Of a DNA stretch of 25,978 bases, positions 1-21,388 are shown in pieces. Source of the DNA: a virus (lineage: Duplodnaviria; Caudoviricetes); IMG/VR virus record IMGVR_UViG_3300029448_000371, positions 1-25,978 of that record; one strand, 5' to 3'. The position numbers and the translations under genes are program-made. A model generated the notes under the pieces. It was not told where the DNA came from and ran no database searches. It worked only from the letters and a program-made list of their open reading frames with translations. Within the stretch, counting starts at the first letter, position 1; every line of letters starts with the position of its first letter.

Positions 1-72
1 CGCAACCTTTTTATTTTTCTCGACAACATCTCCAACTTTTTTGATGTCAGTAAAAATCATAAGTAATTTCAT
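1..72 (-). CDS. 5' end of a gene running off the window (MKLLMIFTDIKKVGDVVEKNKKVA...), unknown product
   Basis: ATG at 72-70 overlaps the TAA of the upstream gene (TAATG). AAGGAGG RBS precedes it and the frame is open to position 1. Confidence 0.7.
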   Translation of the reverse strand, partial: MKLLMIFTDIKKVGDVVEKNKKVA

Positions 73-296
73 TATGCTACCTCCTTAAATTGTTGCATCA
101 TTTTACCAGCCTCTTGTACTAAGTTTTTGAATGGATTTGGTTTTTTTTTATTTCCAAACTCTCCCCAAAGCTGGTTATATTTTACCCAGCTGCTGCTCCA
201 GTAACCAAACATTTCAAACTTATATCTGGCTAAACTGTCGATAGCCTTGTCATAGGCTTCATTCATTTTTTGTTCTAAGATATCGTTTTTATCCAT
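72..296 (-). CDS. hypothetical phage protein (74 aa)
   Basis: ORF track; TAATG coupling with both neighbours. Confidence 0.75.
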   Translation of the reverse strand: MDKNDILEQKMNEAYDKAIDSLARYKFEMFGYWSSSWVKYNQLWGEFGNKKKPNPFKNLVQEAGKMMQQFKEVA

Positions 297-511
297 TATT
301 GCTTGACCTCACTTTCTTGCCAGGAGTTACCCCTAGCAATACTTTTTTCATTAGCCTTACCGATCAATCTGTATTGTTTGCCTGGCTGCGGTTTGTTGGG
401 ATCATAAACAGTATCTTTGACCAGTTCTGGCTTACCAGAATTACTGTCGTAGACATATTCTCTAACTCTAACGATAGGATCTGGCTTGATGTTATAGACA
501 ACTTTTTTCAT
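296..511 (-). CDS. hypothetical phage protein (71 aa)
   Basis: ORF track; TAATG coupling; AAGGGAG RBS-like sequence upstream. Confidence 0.75.
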   Translation of the reverse strand: MKKVVYNIKPDPIVRVREYVYDSNSGKPELVKDTVYDPNKPQPGKQYRLIGKANEKSIARGNSWQESEVKQ

Positions 512-756
512 TAGTTTACACTCCCTTTTATATTTGTAATGTTCCAGAATTTTTCTTTAAGAAGAATTGACTTCTTTGTTCTCTCAATATTTTTTCTAGC
601 TTCATCATGTGACCAAACTTTATAATAATCATTCCATTTATTCTCATTATGAAGTTGTGCTTGAAGCCAAAATAATCTTTCATAATCAAGTGAAAGATCT
701 TCCCATGCTTCTTTCTTTTCTTCTTTGGTAAAGCCAGACCAATCATAGTTTTTCAT
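511..756 (-). CDS. hypothetical phage protein (81 aa, start revised to MKNYDW)
   Basis: AAAGGAGTACAACATG gives a strong RBS before the ATG at 756. The ORF-track start at 792 lies inside an operator palindrome. Confidence 0.7.
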   Translation of the reverse strand: MKNYDWSGFTKEEKKEAWEDLSLDYERLFWLQAQLHNENKWNDYYKVWSHDEARKNIERTKKSILLKEKFWNITNIKGSVN

Positions 757-783
757 GTTGTACTCCTTTTGACCTTTCTGTTT

Positions 784-826
784 TATTAGCATCTATTGCT
801 AATATAATATCCTTTACTCACAATTC
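784..826 (-). promoter_or_regulatory. operator TAGCA-N5-TGCTA (787-801) just downstream of a probable leftward promoter
   Basis: TATTAGCA-TCTAT-TGCTAATA has perfect 8-bp arms. Sigma70-like hexamers (TTGAAT-16-TATATT) lie adjacent on the - strand. Confidence 0.65.
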
Positions 827-876: not shown

Positions 877-899
877 AAACTTGACCAAAACTTGACCAA
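877..899. repeat. tandem 11-bp direct repeats (AAACTTGACCA x2), arm-type integrase site candidate
   Basis: AAACTTGACCAAAACTTGACCAA, identical to 1057-1079. Confidence 0.75.
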
Positions 900-941
900 G
901 CCTTAAAACAGCTCCAGAATTATTGTATATAGGGATTAATG

Positions 942-955
942 GAGGACTGAAAATC
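942..955 (+). other. putative attP core GAGGACTGAAAATC matching a tRNA-Phe(GAA) anticodon arm
   Basis: Contains the anticodon loop CTGAAAA. It shares GACTGAAAATC with the tRNA at 1181-1257 and lies between the two arm-type repeat pairs. Confidence 0.6.
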
Positions 956-1056
956 AGAACATAATAATAAAAGTCATTGATTATCAATACAAGTAGCTAC
1001 ACGCAAATAAATTTATTTTTTTAAAAAAGTATTGAAAAATATAGAACTGAAAAAAT

Positions 1057-1079
1057 AAACTTGACCAAAACTTGACCAA
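1057..1079. repeat. tandem 11-bp direct repeats (AAACTTGACCA x2), arm-type integrase site candidate
   Basis: Exact 23-bp copy of 877-899, 180 bp away, same orientation. Confidence 0.75.
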
Positions 1080-1137
1080 AAAAAAATTAACAAACAATTT
1101 AAAAAGCGATCAATAAAAAATATTTATTGTAAATTAA

Positions 1138-1166
1138 TTGACCATAGCAGATGTTGCTAAATTAAT
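1138..1166 (+). promoter_or_regulatory. operator TAGCA-GATGT-TGCTA (1145-1159) within a possible rightward promoter
   Basis: Perfect operator consensus preceded by TTGACC (1138-1143), with ATTAAT at 17-bp spacing. Confidence 0.5.
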
Positions 1167-1180
1167 CTAGTTAATCTGAA

Positions 1181-1257
1181 TGGTGGTCACACCTGGACTT
1201 GAACCAGGGACACCTAGATTTTCAGTCTAGTGCTCTACCGAGCTGAGCTATGTGACC
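1181..1257 (-). tRNA. tRNA-Phe (GAA) with encoded CCA
   Basis: Acceptor stem GGTCACA/TGTGACC, D arm GCTC-AGCTCGGTA-GAGC, anticodon arm CTAGA-CTGAAAA-TCTAG, T arm CCTGG-TTCAAGT-CCAGG, 3' ACCA. Confidence 0.97.
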
Positions 1258-4538: not shown

Positions 4539-4566
4539 AAACTAGCAATATATGCTAACTTGTCAA
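4539..4566 (-). promoter_or_regulatory. PL-like early leftward promoter with operator TAGCA-N5-TGCTA (4543-4557)
   Basis: TTGACA (4566-4561), 16 bp, then TAGTTT preceded by TG (extended -10), with a perfect operator in the spacer. Confidence 0.7.
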
Positions 4567-4619: not shown

Positions 4620-5273
4620 TTAAAATATTCCATGATAAGAATAGTTAGTTGCAATTTTAACAATCGCAACCGCTTTTATTTTTATGTTTCTAATAGGAGC
4701 TGTTGATCCAATTGGCATTACAGTAGCTCTATTTTCTTCAGTTGGATTTTTTAATGTCATGCCACAAATTAAATTTTCTGCTTCTGTTAATACTAAACAA
4801 AAACGATTATCAAAATGTTTTTCAAGCTCATTTTTTTCAATGTATTTTCCATCAAAAATTAAAATATCATAATCAGCAGTTGCTGGATTTGCATCTCTTT
4901 GTATTCTTGGCATAAGATAAGATCTTAAACAAATATAACCTGGTGAAATTGGGAATTTACACATTATTTTTGGTCTTTCTGCTTTAAATAAAGTTACATT
5001 TTCCATTGGAAACATCTCACCAATACATTCTATTTCTAATGGTGGAAATAAAATTTCTTGTGGAGTTAAATTAAATTCTGGAATTGATGATAATTTTTTT
5101 GACAGATCCATAGTCACATCGGCTTTACCATTTAAAACTTTATTTAAATGAATTTTATTTATGCCAATCTTATCTGCGACTTCTTCCTGGGTGTAATCCA
5201 GGTGCTCTATTAAAGATTTTAAATGTTTATTTATTTGGTTATCCACTCTACTGCGTTCCGTATGATTAATCAT
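4620..5273 (-). CDS. cI-like repressor (N-terminal XRE HTH)
   Basis: YTQEEVADKIGINKIHLNKVLNGKADVT HTH; divergent from a small cro-like gene. Confidence 0.85.
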   Translation of the reverse strand: MINHTERSRVDNQINKHLKSLIEHLDYTQEEVADKIGINKIHLNKVLNGKADVTMDLSKKLSSIPEFNLTPQEILFPPLEIECIGEMFPMENVTLFKAERPKIMCKFPISPGYICLRSYLMPRIQRDANPATADYDILIFDGKYIEKNELEKHFDNRFCLVLTEAENLICGMTLKNPTEENRATVMPIGSTAPIRNIKIKAVAIVKIATNYSYHGIF

Positions 5274-5281
5274 AATGGTTA

Positions 5282-5370
5282 TAGAATTTAATGCTATTGT
5301 CTATAAATGCAAGTAAATTAATTTAAAAAACTAATTTTTTTTGACAGTTAGCATTAAAAGTGTAGATATT
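5282..5370. promoter_or_regulatory. immunity-switch intergenic region: operator 5282-5296 (one mismatch), TTGACA 5341-5346 and half-operator 5349-5358
   Basis: TAGCATTAAA occurs inverted at 5287-5296 and 5349-5358; TTGACA-18-GATATT precedes cro. Confidence 0.65.
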
Positions 5371-5376
5371 ATAGCT

Positions 5377-5574
5377 ATGAAATTGGAAACTTTTAGGGTT
5401 CAAAACAACCTAACTTATGGAAAACTCGCTATTTTCTTGGGTTTTGGTGAAAAATCAAATGCAGCCAGACTTGTCCACCGATGGTGCAAGGGGGAAACAT
5501 TACCAACCAGGAATAATATAAAACAAATCAAATCAAGAACACTTGACAAGGTTTCAGCCAATGATTTCTTCTAA
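5377..5574 (+). CDS. Cro-like HTH regulator (start revised to MKLETF)
   Basis: LTYGKLAIFLG...VHRWCKGETLP...DKVSANDFF is a typical Cro-like pattern. The ORF-track TTG start is the -35 hexamer. Confidence 0.85.
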   Translation: MKLETFRVQNNLTYGKLAIFLGFGEKSNAARLVHRWCKGETLPTRNNIKQIKSRTLDKVSANDFF

Positions 5575-5884
5575 ATCAAATCCAAGATTTGGAATATTTT
5601 ACTGGGAAGATCCGATGGAAGATACTGTCGGATGGAAAGAATTAAAAGACTCATCTATCAGCTTAGCTCCAGCTTTTTCAACTGGCTGGATTATTGAAGA
5701 GCATCGCACTTATTGGGTGGTGGCAGCTGATCTCATAGTTTTAAAGGGGGAGATTACAGATACTGGCAGAAGGCAAAGTATTTATAAATCGTCTTTTACA
5801 AAGTTTAAGGAAATAAAATTTAATATTTATGATCCACAAATGGAAACTACTAAAACTTGTCAATGCGGAAAGAGGATTAAATGA
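5561..5884 (+). CDS. conserved-type phage hypothetical protein
   Basis: YWEDP...GW...STGWIIEE pattern; ATG 5561 overlaps the end of cro. Confidence 0.7.
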   Translation: MISSKSNPRFGIFYWEDPMEDTVGWKELKDSSISLAPAFSTGWIIEEHRTYWVVAADLIVLKGEITDTGRRQSIYKSSFTKFKEIKFNIYDPQMETTKTCQCGKRIK

Positions 5885-6470
5885 TGCTGCGAGAAGAGTT
5901 ATGTTTTATTTATTAGATAGAGAAAATAATAAAACACGAGCACTTTTTCCGTCACATCAACGACTCGCAGAGGACACTAACTTATCCCTAAGAAGCGTAT
6001 CCAGGGGGATAACATCACTCGTCACATTTGGCTACCTTAGAATTAAAAAAAAAGGTTATCCAGGAAGAGCTACTGATTATGAGATCATTTACAAAGATCA
6101 ACACACGCCACAATTGACAAGAACACACGCCACAATTGACCAAAATAACACGCCAGATATGACACACCAATTAACTAATATAATTAAACATAATGAATTA
6201 ACTAAGAAAGAAAATATGAACCAGGATGTAAAAAATATAATTAATAAGTTTACTAAGAATTTAAATATTAATTACAGAGCTGTTAGCCAGGATAAAAAAC
6301 TAGCTTACAACTCACCAGAGGCTATTAGAAGAAGGTATATGAAAAAAACAGAGAGCATGGAAAAGACACAAGATTGGTACAGTAGATATCTTAATCCAGA
6401 GACAAGTAAACAAGCATGGGAGGAAGCAGTTTTTTTGGGGATCGTAAAATCTTATGCTAAGAAAGGTTAA
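5829..6470 (+). CDS. HTH (HTH_36-like) replication initiator, lambda O analogue
   Basis: LFPSHQRLAEDTNLSLRSVSRGITSLVTFGYL; internal iterons. Confidence 0.75.
   Translation: MIHKWKLLKLVNAERGLNDAARRVMFYLLDRENNKTRALFPSHQRLAEDTNLSLRSVSRGITSLVTFGYLRIKKKGYPGRATDYEIIYKDQHTPQLTRTHATIDQNNTPDMTHQLTNIIKHNELTKKENMNQDVKNIINKFTKNLNINYRAVSQDKKLAYNSPEAIRRRYMKKTESMEKTQDWYSRYLNPETSKQAWEEAVFLGIVKSYAKKG
6100..6163. repeat. iterons, putative replication origin
   Basis: AACACACGCCACAATTGAC at 6100 and 6122 (22-bp period), a degenerate third copy ACACGCCAGATATGAC at 6148, then an AT-rich tract. Confidence 0.75.
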
Positions 6471-14482: not shown

Positions 14483-15070
14483 ATGACATCAATTGTAGAG
14501 ATATGTAATTCTGGACTTAATATGCTTGGTGCAAATAATATTACTTCATTAACTGAAGATAGTAAAAATGCCAGGCTATGTAATCAACGATTTAGTTCAG
14601 TTAGAGATAGTGTATTTAGAGAGCATTTATGGAATTGTTTAATTAAACGAGTACAACTTGCTGTGGAGTCTGAAACTCCAACACATGAATATATCCATCA
14701 ATATACTCTACCTAGTGATTGTATTCGTGTAATACGAATAGGCGGCACAGCTGATGGATCATCATCTGATTTAAATGGTGGTCAAGTTTTTAAAGTAGAA
14801 GGTAGAAAAATTTTAACAGACGAGGATACTGTTTATTTATTGTATGTAGCTAGGATTACTGATCCTAACGAATACGATACTTTGTTAGTAGAAACACTTG
14901 CAACAAGATTAGCAGCTGAATTAGCCTACGCTATTACAAACAGCAATCCTTTAGCTAATGCTTTAAAAATCGAATATCGAGAAAAATTATCTATCGCTAG
15001 ACATACTGATGCTTCAGAGGGTAGTGCTGATTATTTAGATAGCAGCTCTTACATCAATGCGAGATATTAA
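14483..15070 (+). CDS. tail tubular protein A / adaptor (T7 gp11-like)
   Basis: VEICNSGLNMLG, HLWNCLIKR, YTLPSDCIR and LAAELA motifs. Confidence 0.88.
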   Translation: MTSIVEICNSGLNMLGANNITSLTEDSKNARLCNQRFSSVRDSVFREHLWNCLIKRVQLAVESETPTHEYIHQYTLPSDCIRVIRIGGTADGSSSDLNGGQVFKVEGRKILTDEDTVYLLYVARITDPNEYDTLLVETLATRLAAELAYAITNSNPLANALKIEYREKLSIARHTDASEGSADYLDSSSYINARY

Positions 15071-17592
15071 TGGCTAAACAAACTTTTGCATTTACAAATT
15101 TTACAGCTGGAAAACTATCTCCCAGGTTAGATGGTCGTACAGATTTAAATAAATATTATAATGGATGCAAAACTTTAACAAATTTTACAATACAGCCACA
15201 TGGCGGAGCTACTCGTAGACCAGGTACTAGATTTATCCACGAAGTTAAATCAAGTGCAAGTGCTGTACGATTAATACCTTTTGAATTTTCAACAACACAA
15301 ACTTATGTCATGGAGTTTGGAAATAGCTATATAAGATTTTATAAAGATAAAGGAATAATAACAGAAGGTGATAAAAGCATTTCTGCAATTACCCAGGCTA
15401 ATCCAGCGGTTGTTACTTCCAACTCACATGGTTATACAGATGGAGATCATGTCATTATTTCTGGTGTTGTAGGAATGACAGAATTAAATGGCAAAACATT
15501 TATTGTAGCCAATAAAACAACAAATACTTTTGAATTACAAAATGTAGACGCAGCAAATATTAATTCATCTGGGTTTACTGCCTACGCTTCAGCTGGAACA
15601 ATTAATAAAATTTATCAAATTACTTCGCCTTATGGAACTGCGGATCTACCAGATATAAAATTTGCACAATCCGCTGATCTAATGTACCTGGTGCATCCTA
15701 GCCATGCTATTAGAACTTTAACAAGAACTGGACATACATCCTGGACCTTAGCGACACCTTCGCTAACTGGATCAGTATCTCCAGCTCTAAACACAACTAC
15801 AGATAAATATCCTAGCTCTGTATCTTTTTTTGAACAGCGATTAGTGTTTGCTGGATCTAATGATAATCCTCAAACATTATGGTTTTCTAAAACTTCTGAT
15901 TATAATAATTTTACAACTGGATCTAATGATACAGATGCAATGGTCTACACTATTGCTAGTAATAAAGTTAATGCTATTAGATATCTATCAGCTCAAAGAA
16001 CTTTGATTGCTGGAACAGTTGGTGGAGAGTTTGTTGTAAGTGCTTCTGGTACTACATCCCCTCTTACACCGACTAATGTTCAAATCCAAAAACAGACAAA
16101 CTATGGATCTGCAAATGTTGATGCAGTACAAATTGCAAATGTAACCATGTTCTTACAAAGAGCTAAAAGAAAATTAAGAGAAATGGCATACAGCTATGAT
16201 TTTGATACTTATGTAGCTCCAGACATGACAATTTTATCAGAAGATATTACTGAAAGTGGTATCAATGAAATGTCTTACCAACAAGAGCCAGATAGTATTT
16301 TATGGTGTACTAGAACTGATGGAAAACTTATTGGACTTACTTATCAAAGAAACGAAGAAGTTGTGGGATGGCATGAACATCAAATTAGTGGCAAAGTAGA
16401 TACAACTAAAAATATTATTGCTCAAGGTATTGCATTTACCAGTAATAGCAGCAATGTATCTACCACAAATAATACTATTACAAAATCTAGTCATGGATTA
16501 TCTACTGGAGATGTCGTTTATTATTATGCAGCTTCCAATACTATTGGTGGTCTTAGTAATGGTATTTTTTATTATGTGATAGCTACTGATAGTAATACTG
16601 TAAAACTTGCAACAAGTGCAGCTAATGCTACCGCTGGAACTGCGATCTCATTAACATCTACCCCGGAAAATGATACAACTCAGTATTTATATCAAGGCGT
16701 AAATATTGCAAACAATACTCTTTTTTCTGCATCACATGGTTTTGAAACTGGAGATGAAATTTATTATGAAACATCTGGTACAGCTATAGGCGGTTTACAA
16801 GAAAATTTAAAATATTATGTAAAAAGAATTAATTTGAATGAATTTAAATTAAGCACGACAAAAGATTTAAAAAATATTGTGGTTTTAACTTCAGCTCCGA
16901 CAACTGAACAAACAGATAATATTTTTGCAAATGCTGTAGTAGAAAATATTGCAACAATACCAGGAGATGCTGATGAAGATGATCTTTACATGGTTGTTAA
17001 AAGAACTATTAACGGAGCTACACGCAGATATGTTGAATATTTAACAAGCTATGATTATGGAGAAACCATAGATAATGCTTTTTATTTAGACTCTGGATTA
17101 TCTTATTCTGGTGATCCTATTACATCAATTTCTGGACTCGATCATTTAGAGGGGGAACAAGTCACTATACTAGCAGATGGTTCTACCCATAGTGCAAAAA
17201 CAGTCAGCTCAGGAGCTATCTCCTTAGACCGATCTGCTAGTACCATACAAATTGGTTTAGGTTATGAAAGTATTTTGCAAACAATGCGTATTGAAGCTGG
17301 AGCTCAACAAGGTGTGGCTCAATCCAGAATTAAAAGAATACACGAAATAACATTAAGATTATTTAGATCAGTTGGTTTAGAAGTAGGATCTAACCTGGCT
17401 GATATGGAAACCATCCCATTTAGGACCAGCTCCGATGCGATGGATGTTGCAACATTAGAGTTTACTGGAGATAAAGACATAGAGTTTAGAGGAGATTTTG
17501 AAACTGATGGATATATATACATAAGGCAAACTCAGCCTTTGCCTACCAATGTTATAGGTATCTATCCTAGAGTTACTACGAATGAAGGGTAA
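15070..17592 (+). CDS. tail tubular protein B / nozzle (T7 gp12-like) with inserted beta domains
   Basis: NFTAGKLSP, GGATRRPGT, RLIPFEFS, FFEQRLVFAG, VVGWHEH and QTQPLP motifs. Confidence 0.9.
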   Translation: MAKQTFAFTNFTAGKLSPRLDGRTDLNKYYNGCKTLTNFTIQPHGGATRRPGTRFIHEVKSSASAVRLIPFEFSTTQTYVMEFGNSYIRFYKDKGIITEGDKSISAITQANPAVVTSNSHGYTDGDHVIISGVVGMTELNGKTFIVANKTTNTFELQNVDAANINSSGFTAYASAGTINKIYQITSPYGTADLPDIKFAQSADLMYLVHPSHAIRTLTRTGHTSWTLATPSLTGSVSPALNTTTDKYPSSVSFFEQRLVFAGSNDNPQTLWFSKTSDYNNFTTGSNDTDAMVYTIASNKVNAIRYLSAQRTLIAGTVGGEFVVSASGTTSPLTPTNVQIQKQTNYGSANVDAVQIANVTMFLQRAKRKLREMAYSYDFDTYVAPDMTILSEDITESGINEMSYQQEPDSILWCTRTDGKLIGLTYQRNEEVVGWHEHQISGKVDTTKNIIAQGIAFTSNSSNVSTTNNTITKSSHGLSTGDVVYYYAASNTIGGLSNGIFYYVIATDSNTVKLATSAANATAGTAISLTSTPENDTTQYLYQGVNIANNTLFSASHGFETGDEIYYETSGTAIGGLQENLKYYVKRINLNEFKLSTTKDLKNIVVLTSAPTTEQTDNIFANAVVENIATIPGDADEDDLYMVVKRTINGATRRYVEYLTSYDYGETIDNAFYLDSGLSYSGDPITSISGLDHLEGEQVTILADGSTHSAKTVSSGAISLDRSASTIQIGLGYESILQTMRIEAGAQQGVAQSRIKRIHEITLRLFRSVGLEVGSNLADMETIPFRTSSDAMDVATLEFTGDKDIEFRGDFETDGYIYIRQTQPLPTNVIGIYPRVTTNEG

Positions 17593-18531: not shown

Positions 18532-20861
18532 TGGCACAAATACCTACTTATAAATCTCAAAGTGGTTTGAGAGCTGGAACTGGTAATACACAGCTTAGTG
18601 TTCCTGGAGGATTACAAGAGGCAGCCGCAGCTCCAGCTAATGCTCTAGCAGAGCTTGGTAAAACTGGTATGGATATGTCAGTTAAGTTTTTTGCACAGCA
18701 AAAAGCAATAGAACGAGAAAATTTATTAGCTGCTAATTATGAAAAGTTTTTAATTGGTGATGATAACAATCAAGGTTTCAATTTAATCAAAGCAGATGCA
18801 ATGTCTAAAGGAGATACCGCAGCTCTTGAAAATTTTAAAATGTTATCTGAAAATTATTACAATCAAATTTTGTCTACTATTGATGATGATGTTGTAAAAA
18901 GAGCATTTCAAGAAAAATACAATGATACTTTTGCCTCTAATTTTATTGATGTTCAATCCCAGGTTTATCAAAATAATATTGATAAAGGAAAAGAAACTCT
19001 GGCACAAAATATCAACAACTCAACAAATCGATTTGTAAATGGTTTTAATCAGTCAGAAAAAAATAAAGGTTTTAGTGAAATAGAACTAGAAATAGACAAA
19101 GCGATAGAATTGGGAATTGTAGATCCAGGCAGCAAAGATAAAATTTTATACGCAGCTCATGAGGTTGCATACAAAACAGATTTAAAACAACAAATAAATA
19201 CAAATCCCCAGGCAGTAATAGATAAAATAGAAGGCGGACTCTATAATGATTTAATTAATGCTGAGGATTTAAGTACAATAAAAAATTCTGCTCTATCTGC
19301 TGTCAGTAAAAACAACACAGAATATATTACAAATTTAACAACTAATGGTGATATTAAAAAAGAAAAATTAGAGGGTTATATAGAGTCTATAGAATTATTT
19401 GAAGCTCCAGATATGGAAAGAGTAAATGCTTTAGTTACAGAATTAGCATCAATAGACCAAGCTCGTGTTGCAGTTGGCAAAACACCAAAATATACAGATA
19501 CTATTGAAGATTATAAAGATGCTGTATTTGCATTTAATTATTTAGAAGGTATTAAAAATAATCCATCATTAGCAGATGAAATTGTTGCTCAAATAGAAAA
19601 AGAAATATCTGATGACAGAGCATTAGGTAACGATCCAAACAATTCATTAATCAAAGCCAGAGACAAGGCTATTGTTTTAAGAGATAAAATTAATAAAGAG
19701 TCCATAACCGATAATAATGTTTTACAACAAGAATTAGGAAATCCAGGATTACCAGATGTAGATTTTTTTTCAGATCCAATAACTTTTCAAACACAAATTA
19801 AAGGTGATGGAGCTGGTAGTTATAAAGAAATTATAACTAATAATGCTAATCGTATGAATATTGGTGTTCAATATTTTACAGACAATTCATTTAATAAAAT
19901 TGAAGAAAAATTAAAAACAGCTAACTATGATGATTTTGTAAATTTTTTTACAAATATTTCTAATGTAGCTGGTAAAGATACCATTGATATTTTTAATGAA
20001 TTTAAAGATTTAGATCCAGGCTTAGCTCATATTGGAATGATAATAAATCAGAATGATGGCAAAATTACAAAGCCAATGCAAAGTGCTATTAAGGGTTACA
20101 TATCTGGAAGAGATCAGAATAACAAAGATGTTTTTAGTAAGATGCCTGATGATTGGAAAATTGAAATTAACAATGAATTTTTTAATTCTGCATACGATGA
20201 AAAACAAATGCTTGGACTTAAAGATCAAATATTACAAGCTGGTAATTATATATTTTTAGATAAATTAAAAGAGTCTGATTATTTTAATGAAATGGCAAAA
20301 TCTGATTTTGCAACTGGAACATCATTTAATTTAGATGGAGATGATAAATTTACAAATTTATATAAAGACTCATTGCAAGAGGCAGCTGGTCGAATACAAA
20401 AAAATGGTCTTTATTATGGAGGCTTTCTAGAGCATGGACCAAACAATTTTATAATTATTCCAAATAACATTAGAAATGATTTTGATATTACAGATGCATT
20501 AGAAGAAGGATTGACAGATGAATTATATAACATGGCTACATTTGTTATTAGACCAAGAGTGCCAATGCCTGGCAATTTAGAAACTGAGTCTACAGAATTT
20601 GCAGCTGATTTTACAGAAACACCACAAGGACATTTTGATGGACAACCAATAGATGATTGGAAAGATTTTTTCTTTGAAAAAGAAAGTATTTACTTTTCTA
20701 ATTATGAAGAAGCTAATGGTGTTTATTATATTCACTATAACAATCCCAATGAGCCTGGATCAAAAATTTATACTGATAAAGAAGGTAGACCAATATTATT
20801 TGATCTTGCCAATATATACGATGAATTAAATAAAAATTTAGATGAATTGCAATCCAAATGA
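18531..20861 (+). CDS. internal virion/ejection protein (gp15-like)
   Basis: MAQIPTY start, long helical acidic protein; synteny. Confidence 0.7.
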   Translation: MAQIPTYKSQSGLRAGTGNTQLSVPGGLQEAAAAPANALAELGKTGMDMSVKFFAQQKAIERENLLAANYEKFLIGDDNNQGFNLIKADAMSKGDTAALENFKMLSENYYNQILSTIDDDVVKRAFQEKYNDTFASNFIDVQSQVYQNNIDKGKETLAQNINNSTNRFVNGFNQSEKNKGFSEIELEIDKAIELGIVDPGSKDKILYAAHEVAYKTDLKQQINTNPQAVIDKIEGGLYNDLINAEDLSTIKNSALSAVSKNNTEYITNLTTNGDIKKEKLEGYIESIELFEAPDMERVNALVTELASIDQARVAVGKTPKYTDTIEDYKDAVFAFNYLEGIKNNPSLADEIVAQIEKEISDDRALGNDPNNSLIKARDKAIVLRDKINKESITDNNVLQQELGNPGLPDVDFFSDPITFQTQIKGDGAGSYKEIITNNANRMNIGVQYFTDNSFNKIEEKLKTANYDDFVNFFTNISNVAGKDTIDIFNEFKDLDPGLAHIGMIINQNDGKITKPMQSAIKGYISGRDQNNKDVFSKMPDDWKIEINNEFFNSAYDEKQMLGLKDQILQAGNYIFLDKLKESDYFNEMAKSDFATGTSFNLDGDDKFTNLYKDSLQEAAGRIQKNGLYYGGFLEHGPNNFIIIPNNIRNDFDITDALEEGLTDELYNMATFVIRPRVPMPGNLETESTEFAADFTETPQGHFDGQPIDDWKDFFFEKESIYFSNYEEANGVYYIHYNNPNEPGSKIYTDKEGRPILFDLANIYDELNKNLDELQSK

Positions 20862-21388
20862 ATAAAATACAATGGGATTTTATAAGTGAATGTGAAGGTA
20901 AAGGAATAACAGTTGGTTATCAGCCTACTAATAATTCTGGTGTTACAATAGCTACTGGTTTTGATTTAAAAGAAAAAGATGATGTGTTTTGTAGATCTAT
21001 TGGTATTTCAGAACCTATTATAGAAAAATTTATAAAATATTTTGGATTGTCTGGATCTCATGCAGCTAAAGTTGCAAAAAATTTAACGCTAAGTGAAGAA
21101 GAAGTTTTTGAAGTTGATGTCTGTAGTAAAAAATATTATTCCAAAAATTTAATTAAACAATTCAATAATTTTAAGCCAGTAAAAAAATTTGAAGAATTAA
21201 CAAGTGAACAACAAACTGTATTGGCATCAGTTGGATTTCAATATGGATCTTACTCCAGGACTCCAACTTTTATTAAATACGCAGCTCATGGTGAGTGGGA
21301 TAATGTGATAAATGAACTTAATAATTTTGGTGATGCTTATGAAACCAGAAGAAAAAAGGAAGCAGCATTTTTAAATGGCAAGATTTGA
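20858..21388 (+). CDS. pesticin C-terminal-like muramidase (T4-lysozyme-type fold)
   Basis: WDFISECEG...GYQP..NSGVTIATGFDL, QTVLASVGFQYG and RRKKEA motifs. Confidence 0.82.
   Translation: MNKIQWDFISECEGKGITVGYQPTNNSGVTIATGFDLKEKDDVFCRSIGISEPIIEKFIKYFGLSGSHAAKVAKNLTLSEEEVFEVDVCSKKYYSKNLIKQFNNFKPVKKFEELTSEQQTVLASVGFQYGSYSRTPTFIKYAAHGEWDNVINELNNFGDAYETRRKKEAAFLNGKI

Follow-up and report, generated by a model that had tools for sequence, protein, structure and literature searches.

The stretch of viral DNA analysed here (25,978 nucleotides, hereafter the window) probably carries the attP of a temperate HTVC010P-like marine podovirus, whose crossover would fall within a host tRNA-Phe gene, in its anticodon loop, and leave that gene unrebuilt, with the tRNA-Phe of the phage as its likely replacement. 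A sequence-only reading of the window had already proposed that the phage breaks the host tRNA-Phe and complements it with its own copy. The anatomy of the site, an adjacent integrase, candidate host genes containing the core and the lack of a rebuilt tRNA in modeled junctions speak in favor of this proposal, against which stands the fact that no junction with a host chromosome was found. The module appears to belong to tRNA-dependent lysogeny, a strategy that has already been published, also for SAR11 phages, and what is new is the Phe isotype, the phage group, and the presence of an operator-like palindrome at the site.

Anatomy of the predicted attachment site and its integrase

The features considered in the window are the following, the relatives L008 and L005 being described below.

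1 to 74, minus strand: beginning of the small ORF situated, in L008, before the tyrosine integrase gene (90% identical to L008:5033-5105)
787 to 801, no strand: exact operator-like palindrome TAGCA-N5-TGCTA, lying over the promoter predicted for the small-ORF/integrase operon and conserved in L008 and L005
877 to 898, plus strand: the two predicted arm sites for the integrase on the left, with TTGACCA at 881-887 and 892-898
942 to 955, plus strand: predicted attP core, tRNA-Phe 5' anticodon stem and loop, with CTGAAAA (947-953) as the likely 7-bp overlap; TGAAAATCA is invariant in the window, L008 and L005
970 to 982, minus strand: IHF-like site AATCAA-N4-TTT, at the same place in three lineages
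1057 to 1078, plus strand: the two predicted arm sites on the right, with TTGACCA at 1061-1067 and 1072-1078
1138 to 1159, plus strand: fifth TTGACCA box (1138-1144) with the adjoining second operator-like palindrome (1145-1159); TTGACCATAGCA is invariant in three lineages
1181 to 1257, minus strand: complete tRNA-Phe(GAA) with encoded CCA, inverted with respect to the core and closing the leftward early operon
4543 to 4557, no strand: exact operator-like palindrome, the third in the window, situated upstream of the leftward early operon whose last gene is the tRNA
4620 to 5273, minus strand: divergent cI-like HTH gene (PF01381 and PHROG repressor matches)
5282 to 5296, no strand: palindrome with one mismatch, between the cI-like and cro-like genes
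about 5341 to 5574, plus strand: small cro-like ORF, so labeled from its position only

We confirmed the two pairs of 11-bp repeats described around the core, with exact copies of AAACTTGACCA at 877-887, 888-898, 1057-1067 and 1068-1078, and a fifth exact copy was noticed on the minus strand at 14779, within a tail gene. The alignment with relatives indicates that the repeat unit kept in the arms is TTGACCA and not the full 11-mer; in the three-way alignment of the window, L008 and L005, these boxes are invariant in the three lineages and the spacers between them are variable. On the tRNA strand, a hairpin is predicted for the stretch from 1138 to 1159 (z -3.4).

Between the repeats, the lone tRNA-Phe anticodon arm of the earlier reading is indeed present (GAGGACTGAAAATC, 942-955, loop CTGAAAA at 947-953). 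Simulation of 100,000 inter-arm spacers yielded a chance match of 11 bp to the anticodon arm of the phage's own tRNA in 0.015% of the cases, and the 7-bp loop alone in 7%. The IHF-like site, too, was found where it had been reported (AATCAATGACTTT, 970-982, minus strand), with one mismatch to the consensus of the IHF binding site; since one-mismatch matches are frequent in the window (2.6 per kb), its support comes from the conservation in three lineages. Genes of the HU/IHF family occur in all five candidate host genomes examined, three in each. The layout is thus that of a lambda-type attP, with direct-repeat arms on both sides of the core and an IHF-like site between them, the binding itself being predicted, and we regard the region 877-1078 as very likely an attP.

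The exact 22-bp arm pair is also found next to tyrosine integrases in two unrelated contigs (L001:10001-10022 and L002:3744-3765), in the latter with an overlap at the integrase gene's 3' end. A search elsewhere for the arm together with the exact core returned two matches, both in coding DNA and attributable to chance.

The same elements could be read as an internal switch or replication element, for instance one that inverts the segment from the core to the tRNA of the phage itself, instead of a chromosomal integration site. The two share an inverted 11-bp sequence, 261 bp apart, and the Asn group of sister phages described below is inverted as well; against this, no strand-changing joint appeared in eight read-run comparisons, the contigs of the window and its relatives all have one orientation, and the core of the window and of L008 agrees better with host tRNA (13 to 15 bp) than with the phage's own (11 bp). 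The association of the 22-mer with tyrosine integrases in unrelated contigs and the location of a replication-initiator-like gene elsewhere, at 5829-6470, also argue against an internal element, to which we assign a minimal probability.

None of the 36 ORFs scanned in the window encodes an integrase. A tyrosine integrase, which was to be sought elsewhere in the genome, is found in the relative L008 (L008:5196-6416, 406 amino acids, PF00589, 77 bits), directly after a 53-amino-acid ORF whose start is 90% identical to window positions 74 to 2. In read run X9, a 1346-nt contig with a depth of 9.06 covers window positions 1-299, and a contig of equal length and depth spans L008 5033-5263 and 5519-5836, which include pieces of the integrase; because these two contigs are taken as one, the integrase of the window would start about 365 bp to the left of position 1. 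The catalytic residues R229, H336, R339, H362 and Y371 are conserved in four aligned homologues, the close homologues found for the integrase amounting to only three proteins, and the catalytic domain is preceded by about 200 residues that matched no arm-binding Pfam family. The small ORFs lying between attP and integrase (window 72-792) vary among relatives and strains: the contigs of X5 and X6 omit positions 513-766, and the 74-amino-acid ORF at 72-296 is 93% identical in L168, a more distant relative.

Candidate hosts and the predicted fate of the host tRNA-Phe gene

In the order of a Pelagibacteraceae single-cell genome, the tRNA-Phe pattern was matched in 226 of 251 genomes. Among the 150 of these 226 matches that were listed, a tally that includes the unpublished genome G186 (nothing claimed here depends on it), about 97 have the anticodon stem GAGCC, which leaves only the loop in common with the core. 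The stem is TCGGA, together with a T-loop, in 14 others and AAGGA or TAGGA in 26. Most Pelagibacteraceae tRNA-Phe genes have, in fact, just the 7-bp loop in common with the core, and the AAGGA/TAGGA group corresponds to one SAR11-order family of 60 genomes, that of G307. In this family, the expectation that candidate host tRNA-Phe genes contain the core was borne out, with AGGACTGAAAATC in 52 of the 60 genomes and a control pattern in none; it is single in 51 of those 52, the genomes being incomplete, and all 30 loci fetched proved to be tRNA-Phe.

The core has 13 bp (window) or 15 bp (L008) in common with the tRNA-Phe of G307 and 14 bp with the GAGGA-type alphaproteobacterial tRNAs. At the level of the class, the exact 14-mer occurs in the tRNA-Phe of 15 of the 112 matching genomes (a count that leaves out the unpublished G479), including the low-GC genomes G472, G557 and G519, and some of its carriers are both small and low in GC. 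On these sequence matches, the host is likely a low-GC alphaproteobacterium, the best candidate being the SAR11-order family of G307. The assignment of a host by tRNA likeness, for which G416 ranked first (59 versus 44 to 58) with a T arm identical to that of the phage tRNA, was not decisive.

In the proposed sequence of events, the TTGACCA boxes would, as in lambda-type systems, be occupied by the integrase, which would assemble on attP aided by an IHF-type bend; the strands would be exchanged within the 7-nt loop CTGAAAA; and the modeled products would be an attL with the 5' half of the host gene only and an attR with its 3' half only. Since the host usually has one tRNA-Phe, the cell would then need the copy of the prophage.

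In silico reconstruction of attL and attR for three hosts gave no tRNA-Phe at the default threshold of ARAGORN. It is possible to hypothesize that the crossover nonetheless restores the function of the host, through a usable tRNA at attR or a spare host copy, the phage tRNA being accessory. With relaxed settings, a pseudogene-like tRNA is called at the modeled attR for the window and L008, and 3 of the 112 matching class-level genomes have two exact tRNA-Phe pattern matches. However, the relaxed call has two acceptor mismatches, is absent for L005, and survives only to a threshold of 92, at which 165 of 2000 random joins were also called, whereas intact host and phage tRNAs pass a threshold of 115; the occurrence of a single core in nearly all the core-bearing G307-family genomes also speaks against a spare copy. 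We therefore consider a restoring crossover very improbable, and integration at tRNA-Phe without restoration of the gene likely.

The sequence-only reading had suggested looking for chimeric reads or contigs that switch from the phage to a host tRNA at the core, and no such switch was seen in the material covered, with no loose end at 940-956 in X5, X6, X9 and X19 and none among the contig placements listed for the further read-run comparisons, eight comparisons in all. Similarly, no split GGA-type tRNA-Phe was present in 301 alphaproteobacterial genomes, and no related integrase in 401 Pelagibacteraceae genomes, 60 G307-family genomes and a scan of the genome collection, nor did an integrase scan of viral collections reveal a junction, these genomes and samples being ones that need not contain lysogens.

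Other insertions occur near host tRNA-Phe genes. In G323 (L145, G323:C2:89403-90543), a 1.1-kb island with a 250-amino-acid ORF lies in the anticodon arm of tRNA-Phe, where the 5' half of the tRNA is repeated, the gene is restored, and an IHF-like site is found beside the junction; since the island is inserted there, the anticodon arm of tRNA-Phe can be considered to serve as an attB. In L254 (G018:C3:41996-44121), 38 bp of tRNA-Phe are duplicated at a distance of 2.1 kb from the complete gene, probably as the end of another island. Moreover, tRNA-His follows tRNA-Phe by 5 nt in 25 of 30 G307-family loci (L131 to L160), so that integration in tRNA-Phe would part tRNA-His from its promoter; in L138, L139 and L141, inserts are found between the two genes. 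A plus-strand promoter-like match at 892-920 was considered as a driver of the host tRNA-His and set aside: the likeness of the arm box to a -35 element confounds it, and the scan gave 7 matches versus 5.3 expected.

The phage tRNA-Phe, related cassettes and a likely repressor control

The full tRNA-Phe(GAA) on the opposite strand, 225 bp from the core, was recognized at 1181-1257 by both ARAGORN and Rfam (71.8 bits) and is the sole tRNA and the sole Rfam match in the window. Across nine phage and host tRNA-Phe genes, the stems pair in 98.9% of cells, and both-side (compensatory) changes affect 12 of 21 stem pairs; since pairing is kept through compensatory changes, the gene looks maintained. 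Phe codons make up 4.1% of the codons in the window. The promoter scan of the window found no clear promoter belonging to the tRNA alone, and the RNA run X19, whose share was small, gave no contig over it, a result that by itself carries no weight.

Its anticodon stem is CTAGA/TCTAG, as described, and the earlier reading had supposed that this altered stem prevents self-targeting. This supposition is unsupported, since all the variable stems differ, as in known cases: compared to the tRNA-Phe of G307, the differences concern 4 pairs out of 7 in the acceptor stem, 3 out of 5 in the anticodon stem and 2 out of 5 in the T stem. Furthermore, the L005 core matches its own tRNA and that of the host G168 equally, with 10 bp each. 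General divergence accounts for the differing stem, avoidance of self-recombination being a possible factor. At the first base of the loop (base 32), core and tRNA agree in each case, with C in the window and L008 and T in L005.

Relatives were found by means of the gene adjoining the tRNA, which yielded one viral and five metagenome loci (L005 to L010); tRNA, arms and core are kept in all six. Their identity to the window is 99.7 to 99.8% for L006 and L007, 80% for L008, and 76% for L005, L009 and L010. An alignment of the neighboring gene led to 159 viral loci, and the best 80 of these 159 were examined, with integrase calls based on our own profile, which may miss divergent integrases. Within these 80, a tRNA is present in 8, an integrase in 8, and both in 7; the latter seven, in the genomic slot that the Phe cassette occupies in the window, combine an integrase with a tRNA-Asn(GTT), arms of the CTGACA type and, flanked by these arms, a single CTGTTAA loop in inverted orientation to the tRNA (L257 to L260, L262, L267 and L268 in the spacer between tRNA and integrase; L163:460-830). 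The pairing of the core with a tRNA of the same anticodon, anticipated for relatives, thus holds for both cassettes, Phe core with tRNA-Phe and Asn core with tRNA-Asn. The Asn integrases form three subtypes (42 to 100% alike, and 23 to 26% like the Phe-type integrase), so that the seven loci are not seven independent cases; compared with the tRNA-Asn genes of five sampled hosts, their cores match mostly in the loop only. In one locus, L269 (1540-1640), the slot is without a tRNA, and the integrase is accompanied by a 49-bp 3' part of tRNA-Pro (read by eye), which would restore the host gene; L256, which is the L005 contig, ends ahead of any integrase. The remaining 71 loci have neither tRNA nor integrase, the sequence downstream extending at least 1 kb in 56 and at least 3 kb in 34.

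With regard to the control of these genes, the exact palindrome TAGCA-N5-TGCTA occurs at 787, 1145 and 4543, and all three copies are kept in L008 and L005. Nine matches to the palindrome were counted in the window versus 1.44 expected, a number reached in 0 of 100 shuffles; the palindrome sits at four non-coding control points of the window. The copies of the Asn group are situated 16 bp upstream of the tRNA and overlap a conserved promoter-like stretch. TAGCA-N5-TGCTA is likely a repressor operator, a site for cI or Cro. The promoter-like matches at 833-801 on the minus strand are, taken alone, at chance level.

These observations bear on the possibility that the attP is real and breaks the host tRNA-Phe but the phage tRNA serves mainly lytic growth, or a transient program in which the phage integrates and then lyses. 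The tRNA of the window ends a leftward early operon headed by the operator-like palindrome at 4543, the palindrome of the Asn group lies on the predicted tRNA promoter, none of the genomes searched yielded a prophage, and Zhao et al. (10.1101/410191), in the accessible text, raise lyso-lysis and leave the stability of integrated pelagiphages unsettled. On the other hand, the tRNA tracks the integrase with a short core rather than lytic genes, its isotype matches the core, and none of the 71 integrase-less loci carries a tRNA, 56 of them with downstream sequence as given above. A mainly lytic role seems unlikely to us, and a role of the phage tRNA as a replacement in lysogens is the probable one.

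More tentatively, and with doubts prevailing, we could imagine that this clade swaps whole cassettes (integrase, arm code, loop-only core and spare tRNA) in one slot, that the palindrome connects the spare tRNA and an arm site to the repressor, and with them tRNA supply and recombination to the lysis-lysogeny switch, and that, at tRNA-Phe, the prophage would also drive the host tRNA-His, resulting in a dependence on two tRNAs.

Known systems and affiliation of the phage

The comparisons that follow refer to the accessible portions of the cited papers. tRNA-dependent lysogeny was defined by Guerrero-Bustamante and Hatfull (mBio 2024, PMC10865867) in actinobacteriophages, among which Fionnbharth (K4), LeBron (L1) and Gaia (X) resemble the window in having a tyrosine integrase, paired arm-type sites and a core over the anticodon loop. 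Their cores measure 8 to 17 bp, no tRNA is rebuilt, and the phage tRNA is a divergent one of the same isotype; relatives switch isotype or use restoring cores, as do the sister phages of the window (PMC10865867). The actinobacteriophage cases were, however, shown by genetics in Mycobacterium, for the isotypes Lys, Ile2 and Leu, with a proven promoter for the Fionnbharth tRNA (PMC10865867), whereas the system of the window is known from its sequence.

Closer in host type are HTVC019P (tRNA-Cys) and HTVC025P (tRNA-Leu TAG), which resemble the predicted module of the window in a SAR11-type host, a short core in the middle of the tRNA and the splitting of the host gene, and for which Zhao et al. 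(10.1101/410191) stated that the phage's own tRNA of the same isotype is "likely used instead." The tRNA-Cys of HTVC019P also has an anticodon stem unlike that of the host. Different from the window, where the tRNA is inverted, both have the tRNA on the same strand as the core; moreover, they are T7-like Autographiviridae with sequenced junctions (10.1101/410191), whereas the window belongs to an HTVC010P-like podovirus with a cI/cro-like switch and the Phe isotype.

The temperate HTVC010P-type phages (HTVC028P, subgroup II; Du et al. 2021, PMC8477408) are like the window in their virion and packaging genes, in a tyrosine integrase and in an attP core from a SAR11 tRNA. However, HTVC028P has a 40-bp core that restores tRNA-Asn (PMC8477408), different from the short, presumably non-restoring Phe core, and its integrase barely aligns with the Phe-type one (21% over 82 amino acids). 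In the accessible part of that paper, eight attB tRNAs are given, none of them Phe (Table S4), and the isolates are without tRNA (PMC8477408). The loop-only cores considered here (7 to 13 bp) are shorter than the 14- to 43-bp matches used for attB assignment in this group, so that temperate phages of this kind would be missed or left unassigned.

Among alphaproteobacterial hosts, two Sinorhizobium meliloti prophages like vB_MloP_Lo5R7ANS (PMC11476347) also break a tRNA in the middle of the gene and bring a replacement; they differ in using tRNA-Leu(UAG), in their soil host with 52 tRNAs, and in having been observed as integrated prophages. For another prophage group, the accessible text of PMC12429752 reports no case of a replacement tRNA. 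Our literature search, in which subscription journals were thinly covered, retrieved no report of pelagiphage integration at tRNA-Phe or, besides the cases cited above, of a phage-encoded tRNA in pelagiphage lysogens. The module of the window would extend tRNA-dependent lysogeny to a second, unrelated SAR11-type phage group, with tRNA-Phe and tRNA-Asn as further isotypes. A prophage holding the sole tRNA-Phe of a streamlined host, where tRNAs number about 32, could not be lost by simple deletion.

As for the phage itself, its capsid and terminase are 59 to 65% and 47 to 49% identical, respectively, to those of HTVC010P-type pelagiphages, and portal and tail tubes are alike too. In a tblastx comparison, the virion module matches that of HTVC028P and the early genes are mostly unmatched; the label HTVC010P-like is based on capsid, terminase and this comparison. 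The G+C content of about 33%, with early and late regions on opposite strands, fits the HTVC010P-type range of 29 to 36%. In the virion region, the ORF at 20858-21388 contains a lysozyme-like Pesticin C-terminal domain (PF16754), and the tail tube B gene (15070-17592) features an inserted PF16190-like segment at residues 115 to 180.
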